Source: an uncultured virus (IMG/VR IMGVR_UViG_3300025174_000006) (taxonomy: Duplodnaviria; Heunggongvirae; Uroviricota; Caudoviricetes). From it: DNA of 64,000 nucleotides. The stretch lies in IMG/VR virus record IMGVR_UViG_3300025174_000006; one strand, given 5' to 3'. This document shows positions 20,446 to 57,399 of this stretch, piece by piece. Numbering within the stretch: the stretch's first letter is position 1; every line of letters starts with the position of its first letter. Both the position numbers and the translations under genes were made by a program. The notes beneath the pieces were generated by a model. It was given only the letters and a program-made list of their open reading frames with translations, ran no database searches and was not told the origin of the DNA.

Positions 20446-21117
20446 ATGGAATTTGATGAATTGATAAGTAATATTGATTTACATTCTCCGTTCCATAAAA
20501 TGCTGGAAAAAAATAAATTAACAATTACACAAAATGAATTATTAAAATATGTTGATGATAATCATTTTACAATAATACATAAAAGAAGGCAAGAAGGAGT
20601 TAGTACTGCGTTATCAGTTTATATTTTGTGGTTATTAATTAATAATCCGGGACATTCAATTGCTTTGATATTTTCTCAGACAGAAGAGAGGGAAAAATTC
20701 AGACAAATTATCAACATGAATTTAACTTTACTTGAAAAAATATTTAAACTTCATGGCTATGATATGGTTTTAACAGCTAAAAACCATAACATAAATGAAA
20801 CTATATTTCCAAATGGTTCGCGTATTCATTATTGGTCAAAAAACAATAAACATGCCGGCAGGGGTCATAGTTTAGATTTTGTTTATATATCAGAAGTAAC
20901 TCACCAAGATAATTACATGGAACTAATTCAATGCCTTTATCCATGCGTTGCAATGAGTAAAAAAGGTAGATTTCTAATCACTTCATCAACTATTAGGACA
21001 CTAAAGGAAGACTTCTTTATGAATGGAGAAGGAATTTCCGAATACTGGTGTAATGATTTTTTCGATGGTAAAAGATTTGTAATAGTAGAAAAATACGAAT
21101 TCAATCATAAAGTGTGA
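20446..21117 (+). CDS. Degenerate terminase-large-subunit ATPase-like domain
   Basis: K.RQ.G.ST, F.NGS.I, GRG.....YISEV (Walker B D replaced by S); no nuclease domain. Confidence 0.55.
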   Translation: MEFDELISNIDLHSPFHKMLEKNKLTITQNELLKYVDDNHFTIIHKRRQEGVSTALSVYILWLLINNPGHSIALIFSQTEEREKFRQIINMNLTLLEKIFKLHGYDMVLTAKNHNINETIFPNGSRIHYWSKNNKHAGRGHSLDFVYISEVTHQDNYMELIQCLYPCVAMSKKGRFLITSSTIRTLKEDFFMNGEGISEYWCNDFFDGKRFVIVEKYEFNHKV

Positions 21118-21674
21118 ATTTTAAAATCAAGCTCTTTTGATAGTGTGTCATAATAAATTCCTATATCTCTCTGTACACATGAAACATCTCTATATTTTTG
21201 AAACATGTCAAATACAAGCATTTCAAACACAGAGCTAGTCAAGAAATCAACCGAAACTTTATATCCACAAACACAAAGAGCTCCTGTTTTTTTTAAAAAA
21301 TCTTTTATTCTTGAATTTTCAGCCTGAAGCACAAGACAACTTCCAAAGAAAATTATCTTATCCTTACAAGAATCCTTTAATATCTCTGATATTTCTTCTA
21401 ATGTTATATCTTCTTTCCCTATTTTTATTTCTCCCTCATTCCCATGAAACGCTATATAACAAATAGAATAATTTGAATATTTTTTTAATTTCCATTGTGA
21501 AAGATAATAAAAGAGCGATTCTTTAGTCCCACAATGTTTATGAATGTATTTAATGTCACAATTTTTTTCTAAAAACATTAAAGAAGCAAATATACTTGAT
21601 TGTTGACGCAAATCTTTTTGCCAATCCCCTTCAAGACAAAAAATGTTCTTTTTATATTTTTTAGAGATTTTCAT
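21105..21674 (-). CDS. DUF6642-like / caspase-CHAT-fold protein
   Basis: IFCLEG.W, YIAFHG, FFGSC His-Cys dyad pattern, GY...VD. Confidence 0.6.
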   Translation of the reverse strand: MKISKKYKKNIFCLEGDWQKDLRQQSSIFASLMFLEKNCDIKYIHKHCGTKESLFYYLSQWKLKKYSNYSICYIAFHGNEGEIKIGKEDITLEEISEILKDSCKDKIIFFGSCLVLQAENSRIKDFLKKTGALCVCGYKVSVDFLTSSVFEMLVFDMFQKYRDVSCVQRDIGIYYDTLSKELDFKIHTL

Positions 21675-34090: not shown

Positions 34091-34237
34091 ATTCTTGTGA
34101 TATTCAATCACATATTTTAATTTTTTCAAAATATATCATGAATCTTTTAAAATTTCATTCGTGAATAAAAATATATTACTTTCAGTATGTTTGCCTTAAA
34201 AGTTTTTTATTGCATATTTATAGTAAACATACTTAAA

Positions 34238-34933
34238 ATGAAAACAGAAACAGAAAAAACAGAAGAGAAACAAAAAATCAAAGAATTGGTTGATAAGGGT
34301 TTAAAAAATAAAGAAATTGGGAAAATATTAGGAATGAAATATCGTACAGTTTGTTTTAAGTTAAGAGAATATAAATTAATTAGATATTCTAAACCGCAAA
34401 TTTCTCAAGAAAAAATAGATGAAATGATTAGATTATATAATGAAGGATATAATTGTACCGAAATTTGTGAAAAAATAAATATAAGTAAAATTACAATTTC
34501 ATTTATACTAAAGGAGAACGGAATCAAAATAGTTAAACGAAGTGCTGATAGTAAACCAGAATTAAGATTATTAAGAGGTGAAAAATGTATAATTTGCGAT
34601 AGAAACCTTGGACCATATGTTACAATATGTAGCACTTGTGTTTCTCAAGTTAGAAGGTATAAAATAAAGAAAAAAATGTTTGATTTTAAAGGTGGCAAAT
34701 GTGAAGATTGTGGAGATGATAGTTTATGTGTGGATATTTATGATTTTCATCATTTAGATCCAGATGAAAAGGATTTTAATTTATCAAAAGTTTTAATAGA
34801 CGGAAAATCTTGGGATGATATAGAAAAAGAATTAAAAAAATGCGCCTTACTCTGTTCTAATTGTCACAGAATTAGACATTCTGTTGAAAGAAAAAGTGAA
34901 AAATTTTGGAAATATATAAAATTAATTTCTTAA
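34238..34933 (+). CDS. HTH plus HNH homing endonuclease
   Basis: GGKCEDCG, DFHHLDP..K.F, E..KC.LLCSNCHR..H. Confidence 0.8.
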   Translation: MKTETEKTEEKQKIKELVDKGLKNKEIGKILGMKYRTVCFKLREYKLIRYSKPQISQEKIDEMIRLYNEGYNCTEICEKINISKITISFILKENGIKIVKRSADSKPELRLLRGEKCIICDRNLGPYVTICSTCVSQVRRYKIKKKMFDFKGGKCEDCGDDSLCVDIYDFHHLDPDEKDFNLSKVLIDGKSWDDIEKELKKCALLCSNCHRIRHSVERKSEKFWKYIKLIS

Positions 34934-34938
34934 AAAGA

Positions 34939-34969
34939 AAAGCTCCAGTAAAACAATTACTGGAGCTTT
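34939..34969. terminator. Bidirectional intrinsic terminator
   Basis: AAAGCTCCAGTAA...TTACTGGAGCTTT between convergent units. Confidence 0.75.
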
Positions 34970-34974
34970 CACTG

Positions 34975-35091
34975 TGTTGATGGGGGGGATCGAACCAACC
35001 CGACTCATTTGCTTTCAGGAAATTGCTCTCACTTACTCCTTGCGAAGTAAAGGATTTGTCTTGCGAAAAACCACCACTGAGCTACATCAAC
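34975..35091 (-). tRNA. tRNA-Phe(GAA)-like gene with a ~40-nt two-hairpin insertion in the D loop
   Basis: Acceptor GTTGATG/CATCAAC, D stem GCTC/GAGC, anticodon loop CTGAAAG, T loop TTCGATC, two GCAA-capped hairpins, no encoded CCA. Confidence 0.75.
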
Positions 35092-35114
35092 ATATTATTA
35101 AAGAACTAATTTTG

Positions 35115-35191
35115 TGTCGATTAGAGACTACAAGTCCTCTCTTTTCTGGTTGTTCACACCAGCACTTTACGTGTACATAAGTTAAATCGAC
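35115..35191 (-). tRNA. Non-canonical tRNA-Phe(GAA)-like gene, copy 1
   Basis: GTCGATT/AATCGAC, TA, ACTT/AAGT, CTGGT-GTGAACA-ACCAG, AGAGG-ACTTGTAG-TCTCT. Confidence 0.75.
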
Positions 35192-35196
35192 ATATG

Positions 35197-35273
35197 TGTT
35201 GGTGAGAGACTACAAATCCGCTCTTATTCGGCTGTTCACACCGATACTTTATATGTGTATAAGTTACACCAAC
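35197..35273 (-). tRNA. Non-canonical tRNA-Phe(GAA)-like gene, copy 2
   Basis: GTTGGTG/CACCAAC, TA, ACTT/AAGT, TCGGT-GTGAACA-GCCGA; compensatory changes relative to copy 1. Confidence 0.75.
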
Positions 35274-35318
35274 ATATTTTATTTAAAAGAACTAAATCGT
35301 TTCAATTATTTAACGATA

Positions 35319-35351
35319 CAAAGATAATAATATTTAAAACTTAAAACCAAA
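35319..35351 (-). promoter_or_regulatory. Bacteroidota-type promoter driving the tRNA-like cluster
   Basis: TATCTTTG at 35319-35326, TTTG at 35348-35351, 21-nt spacer; boxA-like GTTCTTT at 35283-35292 and 35098-35106. Confidence 0.65.
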
Positions 35352-35410
35352 TATTTTATAATAAAAATTTACCTATTTATTAAAAAGTTATTAACAATTC
35401 AAATACTACA

Positions 35411-35950
35411 ATGACTACAGAGGAAAAAAAATTAAGAATAGCTATAAGAAAATCATTAATGGAAATGGAAAACGTTTCTGAAAGCGATATTTTAACAAGA
35501 GCTGGAGTTAACTGGCAAGAGATGAAGCCTAAATTTTTAAAAACAGTTAAATGTCTTGTTTCAAAAATAGATGACGATAAATATAACGATGCAGAAGATT
35601 TAATAGGTAAAGCTATTGGTATGCTTAAAATTTGGAAAGCAAAAATGAAAAAAGGAATAGGAATGGTTGATAGAACTTCGAATACTGAGACGTTGGATGA
35701 AATTGATATTACGGAAACTTTTGGTGGGAAATATGCTCTAGGAACTGGATATAAAAAAGATGAAATTGGCGATAAAAAATATCAAGGAAAACTTATTGAT
35801 TATATTCTTTATAATCAAGGAAGAAACACAGACCAAAGAGAGCCGACTGATAGAAAAATGTATTGCGGATATGATTTAGAACAATTATCTAATAAGGATT
35901 TACAAAAAATAAAGGATAACATGGAACATCCAAGAGGAAGATACTGGTAA
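35411..35950 (+). CDS. Hypothetical late protein
   Basis: 179-aa ORF after CTATTTAT. Confidence 0.6.
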   Translation: MTTEEKKLRIAIRKSLMEMENVSESDILTRAGVNWQEMKPKFLKTVKCLVSKIDDDKYNDAEDLIGKAIGMLKIWKAKMKKGIGMVDRTSNTETLDEIDITETFGGKYALGTGYKKDEIGDKKYQGKLIDYILYNQGRNTDQREPTDRKMYCGYDLEQLSNKDLQKIKDNMEHPRGRYW

Positions 35951-44270: not shown

Positions 44271-45305
44271 TTATCTAATTTCAACATTAAGACGCTCAAT
44301 TGAGGTGAATTTTATATTTTCTTGGATTTCATTTATTTCTGTATTTGTTAAAGTGCGATCATTTGATTGAAAAACTATTCTATAACACTTAGATTGTTTA
44401 CCTGTTTTTGGGTGAGCAAATTCATCTATTAATGAAACATTTTCTATTAAATCGCCTCCATTTTCTCTCACAATTTCACAAAAATTATTATGAGCGAAAT
44501 TAGTATCTGCCCAAAATGCCAAATCTCTGGATATTGGTGGATAACTTGAGTATTCCTTAAATTTAACTACATCTCCAGAAATAAATTGATTTATAAATCT
44601 TTCATCAGACGACCAAAAGTAACGTATGTCTGGTATTTCAAATAAGAGGATAGACAATCTTTCCAAACCTAATCCAAAAGCAAATGCAGCTTTATTTTCT
44701 AAACCACAATTTTCCATAATTTTAGGTTGAACAACCCCTGCACCAAGAACCTCTAACCATTTTCCCTGAAACATAACTTCAACTTCAAAAGATGGATGTG
44801 TAAAAGGAAAATAATCTTCATTGAAGCGGTATTCACAATTTGGAAAAAGAACATCAATAAGACCTTTTAATGTTTTTTTAAGTTCTTCTTCTGCGTTTTT
44901 TCCATCTTCAATTACACATACACCTTCCATTTGGTGAAAAACCGGATAATGAGAGCTGTCAATATCATCTTTCCGATACACATCACCTGTAACTAAAAAT
45001 TTTGTATGACCAGCAGTTAATAATTCATTTTGGTGAGCCGATGTATGGGTTCGTAATATATGATTCTCATCAAAATAATAAGTATCACTCAATGAACGTG
45101 CAGGATGATCTTTTGGAATAAGTAGTTTATCAAAACAATTTTCAGTTGTAACCTTTGGATTTAAATCATCAAATTTTTTATATTCATCTCCAAAGTAATC
45201 ATAGATTTTTCTTTTAATAATTTCTAAAGGATGATTTTTTTGATTGTGTAAATTTCTGCCAATTTTAGCTTGGATTCCGGGGGTAATGTTTGATTTAAAT
45301 TCCAT
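44271..45305 (-). CDS. Monomeric mitochondrial-type phenylalanyl-tRNA synthetase (catalytic domain plus FDX-ACB anticodon-binding domain)
   Basis: HPARS.SDTYY, LRTHTSAHQ, GDVYR.D.ID..HYPVFHQMEG, YFPFTHPS, AFGLGLERL, YPPISRDLAFW, SKCYRI..Q..DRTLT..EIN. Confidence 0.92.
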   Translation of the reverse strand: MEFKSNITPGIQAKIGRNLHNQKNHPLEIIKRKIYDYFGDEYKKFDDLNPKVTTENCFDKLLIPKDHPARSLSDTYYFDENHILRTHTSAHQNELLTAGHTKFLVTGDVYRKDDIDSSHYPVFHQMEGVCVIEDGKNAEEELKKTLKGLIDVLFPNCEYRFNEDYFPFTHPSFEVEVMFQGKWLEVLGAGVVQPKIMENCGLENKAAFAFGLGLERLSILLFEIPDIRYFWSSDERFINQFISGDVVKFKEYSSYPPISRDLAFWADTNFAHNNFCEIVRENGGDLIENVSLIDEFAHPKTGKQSKCYRIVFQSNDRTLTNTEINEIQENIKFTSIERLNVEIR

Positions 45306-45392
45306 AAAATAATTGTTTAATTGTTTTTTGTACAAATTTATAAAAATAATATTAATTAACAATATATTAAACGGAAATCTTTTTAGAATGTT

Positions 45393-46064: not shown

Positions 46065-46781
46065 CTATTTCTTAATGTAATTCAAAATTTGCTTAGCACA
46101 ATCCTCAACATTAAATTTTTGTGTATCAACAATAATCTCTGGGTTTAATGGAATTTCATAAGGTGCTGTATCGTGCACTCCTGTAAAATCCTTTATCTCC
46201 CCACTCCTCGCCTTTGCATACAACCCTTTAACGTCTCTTTGTTCACAAATACTCAAAGGTGTATTGACATATATTTCAGTAAAATCCTTACTTATACTCC
46301 TTACATAATCTCTTGCTTCAGCATATGGAGAAATAAGACTTACGACAGGTATTATACCTTGACTTTGTAAATAAACTGCCATTTTTCCAACATCTTGATT
46401 GTGTCTTATTCTTGCAGCTTTATCAAAGCCATAATTTTTAAATATTTCTCTGATTTCATCTCCATCCAAAAGCATGGCGGCATGACCACCTTCTTTCAGA
46501 CGAGTTAAAACTTCTTTTGCTATCGTTGTTTTTCCAGAACATGAGAGCCCGGTAAAAAATAACATGCTCGTTCTATATTTTTTCTTTGTAAGTTTATCCC
46601 ACACAATATCAAACCAATAATATGTAAGTATTTTTACAATATTTTCCACAAGGCCAAGCATTATGGAGAGTTTTATGTTTCCAGTAAGAAGAAAAGAAAC
46701 AACAAATGTTACAACAAAAGAATAAATTCTGTAAATTACAGATTTTGTCATGTGTTTTATGTTAATTATTTTCCTTAGCAT
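46065..46781 (-). CDS. cysC: Adenylylsulfate kinase with N-terminal DUF2061-like membrane segment
   Basis: FTGLSCSGKTT, LDGD.IR, ISPY, C..RDVKGLY.KAR.GEI..FTG. Confidence 0.92.
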   Translation of the reverse strand: MLRKIINIKHMTKSVIYRIYSFVVTFVVSFLLTGNIKLSIMLGLVENIVKILTYYWFDIVWDKLTKKKYRTSMLFFTGLSCSGKTTIAKEVLTRLKEGGHAAMLLDGDEIREIFKNYGFDKAARIRHNQDVGKMAVYLQSQGIIPVVSLISPYAEARDYVRSISKDFTEIYVNTPLSICEQRDVKGLYAKARSGEIKDFTGVHDTAPYEIPLNPEIIVDTQKFNVEDCAKQILNYIKK

Positions 46782-56481: not shown

Positions 56482-57399
56482 ATGCGTAAATTCAACATTA
56501 TCGGAGGCATGCCTAGATGTGGCACAACTTTAGCTGGACAAATTTTAAATTCTAATCCGAATTTTCATGTGACACCAACTTCTTCAATTTTGGATTCATT
56601 AAAGAATATAAGAAGCACATTTAGTCACAACCCAACTTGGAAGGCTCAAGATAGATTAAAGCTTATGCCAAATATTAGAGCTTCTATGAAGGGGTTTTTA
56701 AATGGATTTTTTGAAAATGAAAATGTTGTGTTTGACAAAAACAGAGGTTGGTCAAATAATATTTCTTTATTAGATGATGTTCTTGGAAATAATGACACAA
56801 AAATAATCTGGTTTTATAGAAATCCTGTTGAAATTATTTCTTCCATAGAAAGCCAACACAACAAGACAATACTTTTAGAAAACACTGATGAAGCTACTAT
56901 TCCAGGAATGTTTATGTCGCTCGACCGGCGCATAGGAACGTATACAAATGAAGATGGATTAGTTGGACACCCAGTTGCCACATTGAAAGACGCGATTGAG
57001 ATGGGATATCTTTCAAGAATTTTATTTGTAAAATACTATGATTTAACTAATAACACACAATTTGTTATGAACGCTATTCATCAATTTATAGGAGAAGATT
57101 TCTATGAATATGATTTAAAAAATGTTAAACAAACAACATATGAATTTGACGGGACTTATAATTATAAATTTCCACACACAATAAAAGAAGGAGAGATAAA
57201 ATGGAAAAAAGCAGATATGACTCTTCCTATGAAATATATACAAGCAATAAATGAAAGATTTTCCACTCTTAATAAATTAATTTTTGAAGGTGATGTATCT
57301 GAATTTGCTGGAGAAGAATTTTCTTCACATCAATTAAATATTGTTATGCCACCAACACAACAAAATTCGGTTATAGAACAAAATCCTTTTCAAATATAA
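56482..57399 (+). CDS. PAPS-dependent sulfotransferase family protein
   Basis: GGMPRCGTTL 5'-PSB loop, DKNR.W, RNPVEIISS 3'-PB motif, VKY.DL. Confidence 0.85.
   Translation: MRKFNIIGGMPRCGTTLAGQILNSNPNFHVTPTSSILDSLKNIRSTFSHNPTWKAQDRLKLMPNIRASMKGFLNGFFENENVVFDKNRGWSNNISLLDDVLGNNDTKIIWFYRNPVEIISSIESQHNKTILLENTDEATIPGMFMSLDRRIGTYTNEDGLVGHPVATLKDAIEMGYLSRILFVKYYDLTNNTQFVMNAIHQFIGEDFYEYDLKNVKQTTYEFDGTYNYKFPHTIKEGEIKWKKADMTLPMKYIQAINERFSTLNKLIFEGDVSEFAGEEFSSHQLNIVMPPTQQNSVIEQNPFQI

Follow-up and report, generated by a model that had tools for sequence, protein, structure and literature searches.

The subject of this analysis is an expanded phenylalanine transfer RNA (tRNA-Phe(GAA))-like gene, own_C, encoded at 34975..35091 on the minus strand (the RNA reads 35091->34975, 117 nucleotides (nt) to A73) of a 64,000-nt stretch of DNA, hereafter the window, from an uncultured virus of the Caudoviricetes (IMG/VR record IMGVR_UViG_3300025174_000006). 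The window comprises bases 105060-169059 of the 212,632-bp virus record (G000, estimated to be 81% complete), and window positions are used unless a record is named. Own_C is the last of three tandem tRNA-Phe-like genes on the minus strand, in the order E1, E2, own_C. It is very probably a selected, tRNA-derived RNA gene that carries a selected hairpin in its D loop. The narrower reading, judged from sequence, is that own_C is a conserved, structurally expanded phage tRNA-Phe(GAA) that is charged by the phenylalanyl-tRNA synthetase (PheRS) of the phage and decodes; the chances for this seem about even. The context that weighed most consists of the two upstream tRNA-Phe-like genes, the monomeric phage PheRS and, at other places in the genome, three ordinary tRNA-Phe genes.

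Architecture and conservation of own_C

The structure of own_C was parsed from its sequence. The acceptor stem GTTGATG/CATCAAC forms seven of seven Watson-Crick pairs and is followed by A73 and an encoded C74; the full CCA is not encoded. The linker U8-A9 leads into a 4-bp D stem (GCTC/GAGC), and A26 is kept. The D loop is exactly 50 nt long and reads AGTGGT (A14, G15, U16, G18, G19 and U20), hairpin 1, C, hairpin 2, TG and A21, with the 43-nt insert of two GCAA-capped hairpins placed between U20 and A21. Hairpin 1 (35053..35072, minus strand; GGTTTTTC-GCAA-GACAAATC) begins directly after U20 and has eight positions, among them one G.U pair and one U.C mismatch, by which the helix listed in an original prediction for this locus, made from the sequence alone, is amended. 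Hairpin 2 (35032..35051, minus strand; TTTACTTC-GCAA-GGAGTAAG) had been given there as TTACTTC-GCAA-GGAGTAA; it is present, but best read one pair longer, as 8 bp of which two are G.U. Because TTCGCAAG is common to both hairpins, a local duplication is a plausible origin of hairpin 2.

The anticodon stem (ATTTC/CAAAT) has four pairs and a C.C mismatch at 31-39 (35019 and 35011, minus strand), and the anticodon GAA (35014..35016, minus strand) stands in a standard 7-nt loop, CTGAAAG, with U33 and A37. The variable loop is GAGTC (5 nt), and G15-C48 is kept. The T arm, GGG(TT)GG-TTCGATC-CCCCC, has a standard loop, and its five G-C pairs require that a TT in the 5' strand of the stem (34997..34998, minus strand) be bulged out. 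All nucleotides that support the L shape are kept: U8, A14, G15-C48, G18, G19, A21, A26, T54-T55-C56 and A58. Every sequence element listed in the original prediction, including the C.C mismatch and the 2-nt bulge, was recovered, on the minus strand, and its call of tRNA-Phe is supported in the form of a tRNA-Phe(GAA)-type gene with a structured D-loop insert. It had also proposed an added domain at the elbow. With the insert between U20 and A21 and with G18, G19, A21, T54-T55-C56 and A58 intact, the insert would sit in the variable pocket, on the L's outer corner, and an added elbow domain is a fair structural reading; a protein dock or shield, the role that the prediction gave to this domain, is a candidate function. 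The two upstream genes, the three ordinary tRNA-Phe genes and the phage PheRS formed no part of the prediction.

Compared with a canonical tRNA-Phe(GAA), own_C shares the 7-bp acceptor stem with G1-C72 and A73, the 4-bp D stem, A14, G18G19, A21, A26, U33-GAA-A37, the 5-nt variable loop, G15-C48 and a T-Psi-C-type loop. It differs in the C.C at 31-39, the 2-nt T-stem bulge, its escape from detection and the D loop of 50 nt with two helices, where the tRNA family has 7-11 nt. As its sequence suggests, own_C would work like a tRNA and descend from tRNA-Phe while departing from the family in D-loop size and in its scores with standard detectors. A chance origin of the pattern is excluded, because a loose pattern for tRNA-Phe with 18-48 nt of extra D loop had a single match in the window and none in 100 shuffles. 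Contigs from four DNA runs that overlap 34700-35600 showed no variants, agreeing with the window throughout the parts that they cover.

Conservation was assessed from three independent relatives, with hairpin 1 compared over two sequences and hairpin 2 seen in G000 alone. A scan with the 861-amino-acid (aa) protein encoded near the array gave one related record, G001 (518,809 bp, complete, with terminal repeats; 57% identity), which has a homologous three-gene array in the same place (E 4e-9). The gene order in both phages is PcfJ-like, PheRS, 504 aa, 861 aa, 263 aa, 324 aa, a small divergent open reading frame (ORF) and the array, and protein identity across this block is 55-77%. In the G001 array, g1_A was called tRNA-Phe by ARAGORN, g1_B is the counterpart of E1 and E2, and g1_C (97 nt) is the orthologue of own_C; their scores on the Rfam tRNA model (RF00005) were 43.6, 41.5 and 42.8 bits, respectively, all above the gathering threshold of 29 bits. 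With R1, a covariance model built from the sibling genes, g1_C scored 35.4 bits and own_C 29.1 bits (E 3e-4).

The D loop of g1_C consists of the same AGTGGT, a single hairpin GGTTCTCT-GCAA-AGAGAATC, TTTA and A21, followed by GAGC. The position, length and loop of hairpin 1 are conserved between own_C and g1_C, and of its eight pairs four are invariant, three are changed on both sides and one is unpaired in G000 only. Hairpin 2 is absent from g1_C, where TTTA-A stands in its place, and it amounts to an extra 19-20 nt in the G000 lineage. The original prediction that both hairpins look selected therefore stands for hairpin 1, an 8-bp GCAA hairpin kept in G001 with three compensatory pairs, and lacks comparative evidence for hairpin 2 because the latter is absent from G001; the search of related genomes for covarying inserts that it proposed as a check gave the same division, hairpin 1 covarying and hairpin 2 not being there.

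Over the whole molecule about 10 pairs are compensated between own_C and g1_C by our own parse (four in the acceptor stem, two in the anticodon stem, one in the T stem and three in hairpin 1), and no acceptor or D pair is broken. A tool-based count over the alignable part (D stem, hairpin 1 and anticodon stem) gave 91.2% of cells paired, against 35-50% in slid controls, with five pairs changed on both sides; the shuffle control, which is weak with two sequences, reached the observed values in 18 of 500 shuffles. When four sibling genes were compared on a cloverleaf with a bulged T stem, 97.6% of cells paired and 12 of 21 pairs were compensated; none of 500 shuffles reached the observed pairing or score, and slid controls gave 29-48%.

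The departures of own_C from a canonical tRNA recur among its relatives. The open 31-39 pair is common to the family (C.C in own_C; C.A in g1_A, g1_B and g1_C), and a bulge in the 5' strand of the T stem occurs in six of six array members of G000 and G001 and also in members of two further phage arrays (L050 and L052), its position moving from one to another. Because the same features are conserved in relatives, the T-stem bulge, the open 31-39 pair and the D-loop hairpin are, on this sequence comparison, family traits and not damage. Folding energy contributed little: the whole RNA had a z of -1.12, which is not significant, and the insert folded alone gave exactly both hairpins (-9.6 kcal/mol), with 92 of 1000 shuffles folding as well. 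Energy alone being not significant, the weight of evidence lies with the comparison with relatives.

The three-gene array and related expanded tRNAs

E1 (35197..35273, minus strand, 77 nt; R1 93.4 bits) and E2 (35115..35191, minus strand, 77 nt; R1 90.8 bits) are tRNA-Phe-like paralogues. In both, a perfect 7-bp acceptor stem precedes A73 and C, and there are a 4-bp D-type stem, an anticodon arm of 5 bp whose loop GTGAACA places U33 and GAA at 34-36, and a T-type arm with one bulged nucleotide. Neither has G18G19 or a T-Psi-C loop, and the anticodon loop of both carries G32 and C37.

Upstream of E1 lies a promoter-like region (35283..35322, minus strand) composed of TTTGTATCGTT (35322-35312) and GTTCTTTTAA (35292-35283). 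Its TTTGTAT.GT is the core of a motif, TTTGTATAGTACATTATAA, of which about 20 copies stand before phage genes on the coding strand, 15-30 nt ahead of start codons (G000:C1 about 8-86 kb, minus strand); one copy immediately precedes the ordinary tRNA-Phe gene at 73045-73119, and the same motif occurs upstream of the arrays in G001, L050 and L052. Downstream of own_C, a terminator-like hairpin (34939..34969; AAAGCTCCAGTAA...TTACTGGAGCTTT, then a T-run on the minus strand) also closes a convergent HNH gene, and a G+C-rich hairpin with a T-run stands at the same place in G001 and L052. By these flanks, the array would form a small transcription unit running from the promoter-like motif through three tRNA-Phe-like genes to the terminator.

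The convergent gene (34187-34933, plus strand) encodes a free-standing HNH endonuclease with N-terminal helix-turn-helix domains. No counterpart was found by tblastn in the G001, L050, L052 and L053 loci, and the gene looks like a lineage-specific homing-endonuclease insertion adjoining a conserved RNA gene. No further copy of the array elements exists elsewhere in the phage genome, and a repeated mobile mini-hairpin was rejected as source of the insert, the locus being single-copy. GNRA-capped stems of at least 7 bp are enriched in the genome (37, against 17.2 in shuffles), but most of them are terminators that are unrelated in sequence, and G+C-rich terminators with GNRA caps occur repeatedly at 75-90 kb of G000:C1.

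Further expanded tRNAs were sought in metagenomes with a pattern for tRNA-Phe with 18-48 nt of extra D loop, which returned 29 loci. Three of these were G000 (L019), G001 (L015) and L032, a 209,885-bp contig that is not independent because it holds an identical 5,071-nt copy of the G000 region. Seventeen loci were partial tRNA copies beside a full tRNA-Phe, and others were two sequencing adapters, one chance-like match, three fragments of a single ambiguous tRNA-like sequence and L011, which is likewise ambiguous. L039 has a tRNA-Phe with a 24-nt D loop. L030, a 1,060-nt contig of a related phage, holds three tandem tRNA-Phe(GAA) genes and shows 68% identity over 200 nt to the region upstream of the main tRNA cluster of G000; its middle gene, L030_mid (644-762), has 47 nt of unrelated sequence inserted at precisely the own_C site, between AGTGGT and A21, in an otherwise regular cloverleaf that was recovered as the minimum free energy (MFE) structure (z = -2.5).

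An R1 search recovered the known arrays and arrays 6-7 kb downstream of PheRS in L050 and L052. In L052 the middle member of the array is a 120-nt tRNA-Phe(GAA) that scored 34.4 bits on the Rfam tRNA model; its D loop is normal, about 44 nt are inserted into the variable region, and 3 nt bulge from the T stem. Three arrays were seen whole, and in all of them the only member that keeps the elbow nucleotides bears a large helical expansion, at a site that varies. C37, in a loop CTGAACA, recurs in g1_A, L030_mid and all L050 and L052 members. Among 185,579 species genomes the D-loop-insert pattern matched five loci with no true case (three half-tRNA duplications in Patescibacteria and two chance-like matches). 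Exact-pattern scans of viral contigs with the hairpin-2 junction of G000 and with the E1/E2 consensus gave no match, and when viral contigs were scanned with the sibling sequence of L050/L052, those two records were the only ones to match.

Expanded tRNAs in the clade are not limited to Phe. G001 has tRNA-model matches of 96, 103 and 117 nt. One of these, at G001:C1:419546-419662 (plus strand; L105:101-217), is a 117-nt tRNA-like RNA (28.8 bits on the Rfam tRNA model) with acceptor, D and T arms in which a hairpin of about 58 nt replaces the anticodon arm; the architecture is reminiscent of the bacterial Y-RNA-like YrlA. In G000, an 88-nt tRNA-Lys(UUU) (G000:C1:182698-182785, minus strand) has a GCC-GAAA-GGC hairpin in its variable region and is the second tRNA of this phage with a GNRA-capped helical insert.

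Phage PheRS and candidate functions of own_C

A single-chain, mitochondrial-type PheRS is encoded at 44271..45362 on the minus strand (PF01409 3.6e-59, PF03147 4.9e-23), with the PF01409 core at residues 35-260 followed by a PF03147 FDX-ACB anticodon-binding domain at 272-363; its true start is probably about 19 codons downstream, because homologues are 342-344 aa long. Its best solved relative was human mitochondrial PheRS, which matched both domains at E 1e-103 in an alignment that takes in the motif-2 and motif-3 regions, whereas bacterial PheRS alpha subunits matched the core only (5e-45). On its sequence, the enzyme appears to be of the monomeric mitochondrial type, with a class II core and FDX-ACB in a single chain. 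A Pfam scan took in 98 ORFs, part of the G000 genome; it held no PheRS beta-subunit gene, and PheRS was the only synthetase. At E<=1e-20 there were 6,430 homologues, of which the best 120 were all two-domain proteins of 316-575 aa, a Tupanvirus enzyme (60%) and a plant organellar enzyme (51%) among them. PheRS homologues with 79-87% identity occur on contigs of 10-46 kb, which means that closer relatives must exist.

PheRS was found encoded at 42 viral loci. Identity to the G000 enzyme was 77% in G001, 66% in L050, 66% in L052 and 62% in L053, and no R1 match was found in the L053 record. In four phages (G000, G001, L050 and L052) PheRS lies 6-9 kb upstream of the array in conserved synteny. 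The linkage of PheRS and array is real within one clade of conserved gene order, and is suggestive of a functional tie.

The review PMC9976931 gives U20 and U59 of the variable pocket, G34, A35, A36 and A73 as identity elements of bacterial PheRS, and the restricted set G1-C72, A73, C74 and G34 for human and yeast mitochondrial PheRS, the small monomeric enzyme being unable to contact nucleotide 20. Own_C has G1-C72, A73, C74 and G34-A35-A36, and its helical domain begins right after U20.

We propose that the own_C precursor would be cut by host RNase P and RNase Z and receive its CCA, and that its body would fold as a normal L from which the hairpin domain projects at the variable pocket, on the outer corner. 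It would then be charged with Phe by the phage enzyme, which would read only the acceptor end, A73 and G34 and be too small to reach nucleotide 20. The insert, the bulged T stem and the open 31-39 pair may alter surfaces read by host factors, namely the (alpha-beta)2 PheRS that uses U20/U59, tRNA-targeting nucleases and modification enzymes. In this way the phage would gain a channel for decoding Phe that is kept apart from the host or able to withstand its defences, with own_C as one member of a deliberately diversified tRNA-Phe set beside the three ordinary genes. Such a reading, in which own_C would differ on host-read surfaces, accords with suggestions made in two papers, namely that huge phages may charge "their own tRNA variants" (PMC7162821) and that alterations in phage tRNAs may let them evade host tRNases (van den Berg et al. 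2023, PMC10264068).

Several points weigh against a charged and decoding tRNA. ARAGORN called no tRNA in the 64-kb window; at gathering scores Rfam gave no tRNA match at own_C, and the locus stayed unmatched by RF00005 at E<=10 on 1.3 kb and on 331 nt. It was likewise absent from the 15 Rfam tRNA-model matches across the whole phage genome, and it is thus neither called by the tRNA finder nor above the family score threshold. The MFE structure (-29.4 kcal/mol) is not a cloverleaf, the model structure having -22.1 kcal/mol. Hairpin 1 has a U.C mismatch in G000, and hairpin 2 is without comparative support. The linkage to PheRS may reflect kinship, being confined to four related phages with conserved order; the other 38 PheRS loci have no such array within 10 kb. 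Extra Phe decoding capacity is not obviously needed, given three ordinary tRNA-Phe(GAA) genes (at 73,045, 85,424 and 185,012 of the genome) and a Phe share of 5.1% of phage codons. An EF-Tu gene was found in neither of the two phages (G000 and G001), and among the 20 public runs containing the own_C locus there were no RNA runs. The bulged T stem is at the surface bound by EF-Tu, and a bulky domain beside G19:C56 could clash with the ribosome or RNase P; decoding is for these reasons not assured.

The failure of ARAGORN is tied to the insert. With the insert deleted in silico, ARAGORN called own_C tRNA-Phe(gaa), and for own_C, its G001 orthologue and L030_mid, three of three were called without the insert and none of three with it. 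As ARAGORN and the Rfam tRNA model miss such genes, phage tRNA inventories undercount them.

A possibility that we consider real, though held with less confidence, is that the array RNAs are non-decoding tRNA-Phe mimics that bind a protein and act as decoys, regulators or non-ribosomal Phe donors. Their target could be the phage PheRS, a host nuclease or modification enzyme directed at tRNA-Phe, or a tRNA-dependent aminoacyl-transferase, and the bulged T stem would keep the RNAs off EF-Tu and the ribosome. The 5'-strand bulge in every array member of the four phages is as expected of such mimics, as are the 31-39 pair that is open in own_C and the three G001 members, the loss of G18G19 and the T-Psi-C loop in E1 and E2, and their G32 and C37, the latter recurring in relatives; a pyrimidine at 37 is rare among decoding tRNAs. 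The three ordinary tRNA-Phe genes would make the array redundant for decoding, and the low Phe codon share and the absence of EF-Tu from both phages point the same way. However, own_C and its orthologue keep the standard U33/A37 loop and all L-shape nucleotides, which a decoy would not need. No tRNA-dependent transferase family was present among the 98 Pfam-scanned ORFs, the ORFs between PheRS and the array fall in no family, and a protein-atlas look-up of the 504-aa and 324-aa neighbours gave no lead. We know of no host nuclease aimed at tRNA-Phe.

Within the reading of own_C as a charged phage tRNA, a more specific version, which we regard as rather doubtful, is that the D-loop domain is an identity switch: with a helical insert at nucleotide 20a, in the pocket read by heterotetrameric PheRS, host PheRS would be blind to the RNA while phage PheRS charges it, so that the two would form a naturally orthogonal tRNA/synthetase pair. 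The array-wide T-stem bulge would in that case govern whether and how the ribosome receives the charged RNA, and the array may supply Phe through a private channel to phage translation or to some use of Phe-tRNA outside the ribosome. The link between own_C and PheRS makes testable the idea that large phages run partly insulated translation components, and natural orthogonal pairs are sought for genetic-code engineering.

Excision of the insert, an option in the original prediction, is very improbable; here the approximately 43 nt would be removed by an endonuclease and ligase, or by self-splicing, to leave a tRNA-Phe of about 74 nt. Archaeal tRNA genes carry D-loop introns. The acceptance of insert-deleted own_C by ARAGORN, this archaeal precedent and an RtcB-type RNA ligase encoded in G001 are what such a scheme would have, but the endonuclease family PF01974 was found in 0 of 2 phages (G000 and G001; the control search hit four archaea), and RtcB was found in G001 only and not in the 81% complete G000. 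The host is bacterial, and D-loop splicing is not known in bacteria. With 43 nt the insert falls well below the size of a group I or II intron (core of at least 200 nt), and no Rfam family, introns included, matches it; a discarded insert need not keep its hairpin through compensatory change; and by eye, no formal search having been made, the junctions show no bulge-helix-bulge motif. A decaying tRNA-Phe pseudogene with junk insertions and mismatches and no function is scarcely credible: its three departures (50-nt D loop, C.C pair and T-stem bulge), the failure of standard detectors, the adjoining homing-type HNH gene as a sign of local genomic flux and a hairpin 2 unique to the G000 lineage would suit it, but about 10 compensated pairs relative to g1_C with unbroken acceptor and D pairs and invariant tertiary nucleotides, a conserved promoter-like motif and terminator, and the conservation of the "defects" themselves all speak against decay. 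In G001 the RtcB gene occupies 206213-206983, and another odd tRNA-like match lies at 208494-208577.

Known systems resemble own_C in part. In class II tRNAs (Leu, Ser and bacterial Tyr) the translation machinery tolerates an extra helix, which the synthetase uses as an identity element. Like these, own_C has an extra helix that leaves the core, and the L052 member and the G000 tRNA-Lys expand the variable region itself; in own_C, however, the helices leave D-loop position 20a and not 44-48. Table 1 of PMC9976931 includes "large VR" in its list of Leu identity elements. Archaeal non-canonical tRNA introns likewise interrupt the D-loop region with tens of extra nt, but those are flanked by bulge-helix-bulge motifs and removed by an endonuclease, whereas the own_C phage has no PF01974 match (0 of 2 phages), a bacterial host and a helix that appears to be under selection. 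The phage enzyme has the same single-chain architecture as mitochondrial PheRS, and many mitochondrial tRNAs lack D-loop/T-loop contacts, as E1 and E2 do; mitochondrial tRNAs are, however, reduced and own_C is expanded, and charging of own_C by the phage enzyme is a proposal. PMC9976931 describes mitochondrial-type PheRS as accepting structurally deviant tRNAs and ignoring nucleotide 20. In the phage tRNAs altered for escape, as treated in PMC10264068, isoacceptors differ at sites read by host enzymes, and positions 32 and 37 of E1 and E2 fit this pattern; the changes described there are point changes in the anticodon loop, whereas own_C has a whole helical domain at the elbow.

No account of a tRNA whose D loop contains a helical domain, of a phage monomeric PheRS or of a PheRS/tRNA-Phe module came up in a literature search with incomplete coverage of subscription journals. 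The architecture of tRNA is among the most constrained in biology, its natural expansions being mainly the class II variable arm and introns that are removed. A selected helical domain in the D loop, at an elbow touched by RNase P, the ribosome and bacterial PheRS, would be a new tRNA build.

Genome context and minor observations

G000 is a jumbo bacteriophage with a genome of about 28% G+C, present at soil, sediment or groundwater sites. The Pfam matches among its 98 scanned ORFs included a sigma-70-type factor, a tyrosine integrase, a DnaB-type helicase, ribonucleotide reductase, an amidase endolysin with a peptidoglycan-binding domain and part of a T4-type large terminase. That the host is bacterial follows from the peptidoglycan-binding endolysin, the sigma-70-type factor and the intrinsic terminators. 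Few phage proteins matched PHROGs, and the ORFs around the array locus fell in no PHROGs family. No relatives of the 861-aa and 836-aa proteins were found among GenBank phages, only the HNH part of the 3-kb locus matched GenBank phages, and single-sequence scans with the neighbouring 465-aa and 179-aa proteins gave no relatives. ARAGORN called 18 tRNA genes in the genome, all beyond the window.

The terminase match (window 20446-21117, plus strand) covers the N-terminal part only (Terminase_6N) and is followed by an opposite-strand DUF6642 ORF (21105-21674); the terminase gene looks split or interrupted. To the left of the window, at G000:C1:103628-104749 (minus strand), a 373-aa ORF carries a thiol-activated (cholesterol-dependent) cytolysin domain (Pfam E 3.3e-35), an unusual phage cargo. 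A sulfur-activation set, comprising an APS kinase fused to DUF2061, a sulfotransferase and a PAPS-reductase-like protein, is encoded at window 46065-46781 (minus strand) and 56482-57399 (plus strand) and at G000:C1:199519-200370 (minus strand). In G000 as in G001, the APS kinase and PcfJ-like genes directly precede the gene for PheRS.

In three contigs of Patescibacteria metagenome-assembled genomes (L100-L102) and in 17 metagenome loci, a copy of the tRNA-Phe 5' half lies 10-20 nt upstream of the complete gene. The copy extends through the 5' strand of the anticodon stem, and many candidate-phyla-radiation genomes contain one; an element integrating into tRNA-Phe may have left it as a scar. 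Another PheRS-bearing phage, L093 (G005:C1:20916-23988), encodes at 1409-1496 on the minus strand an 88-nt tRNA-Val(UAC) with an enlarged variable region, in a cluster of nine tRNA genes.

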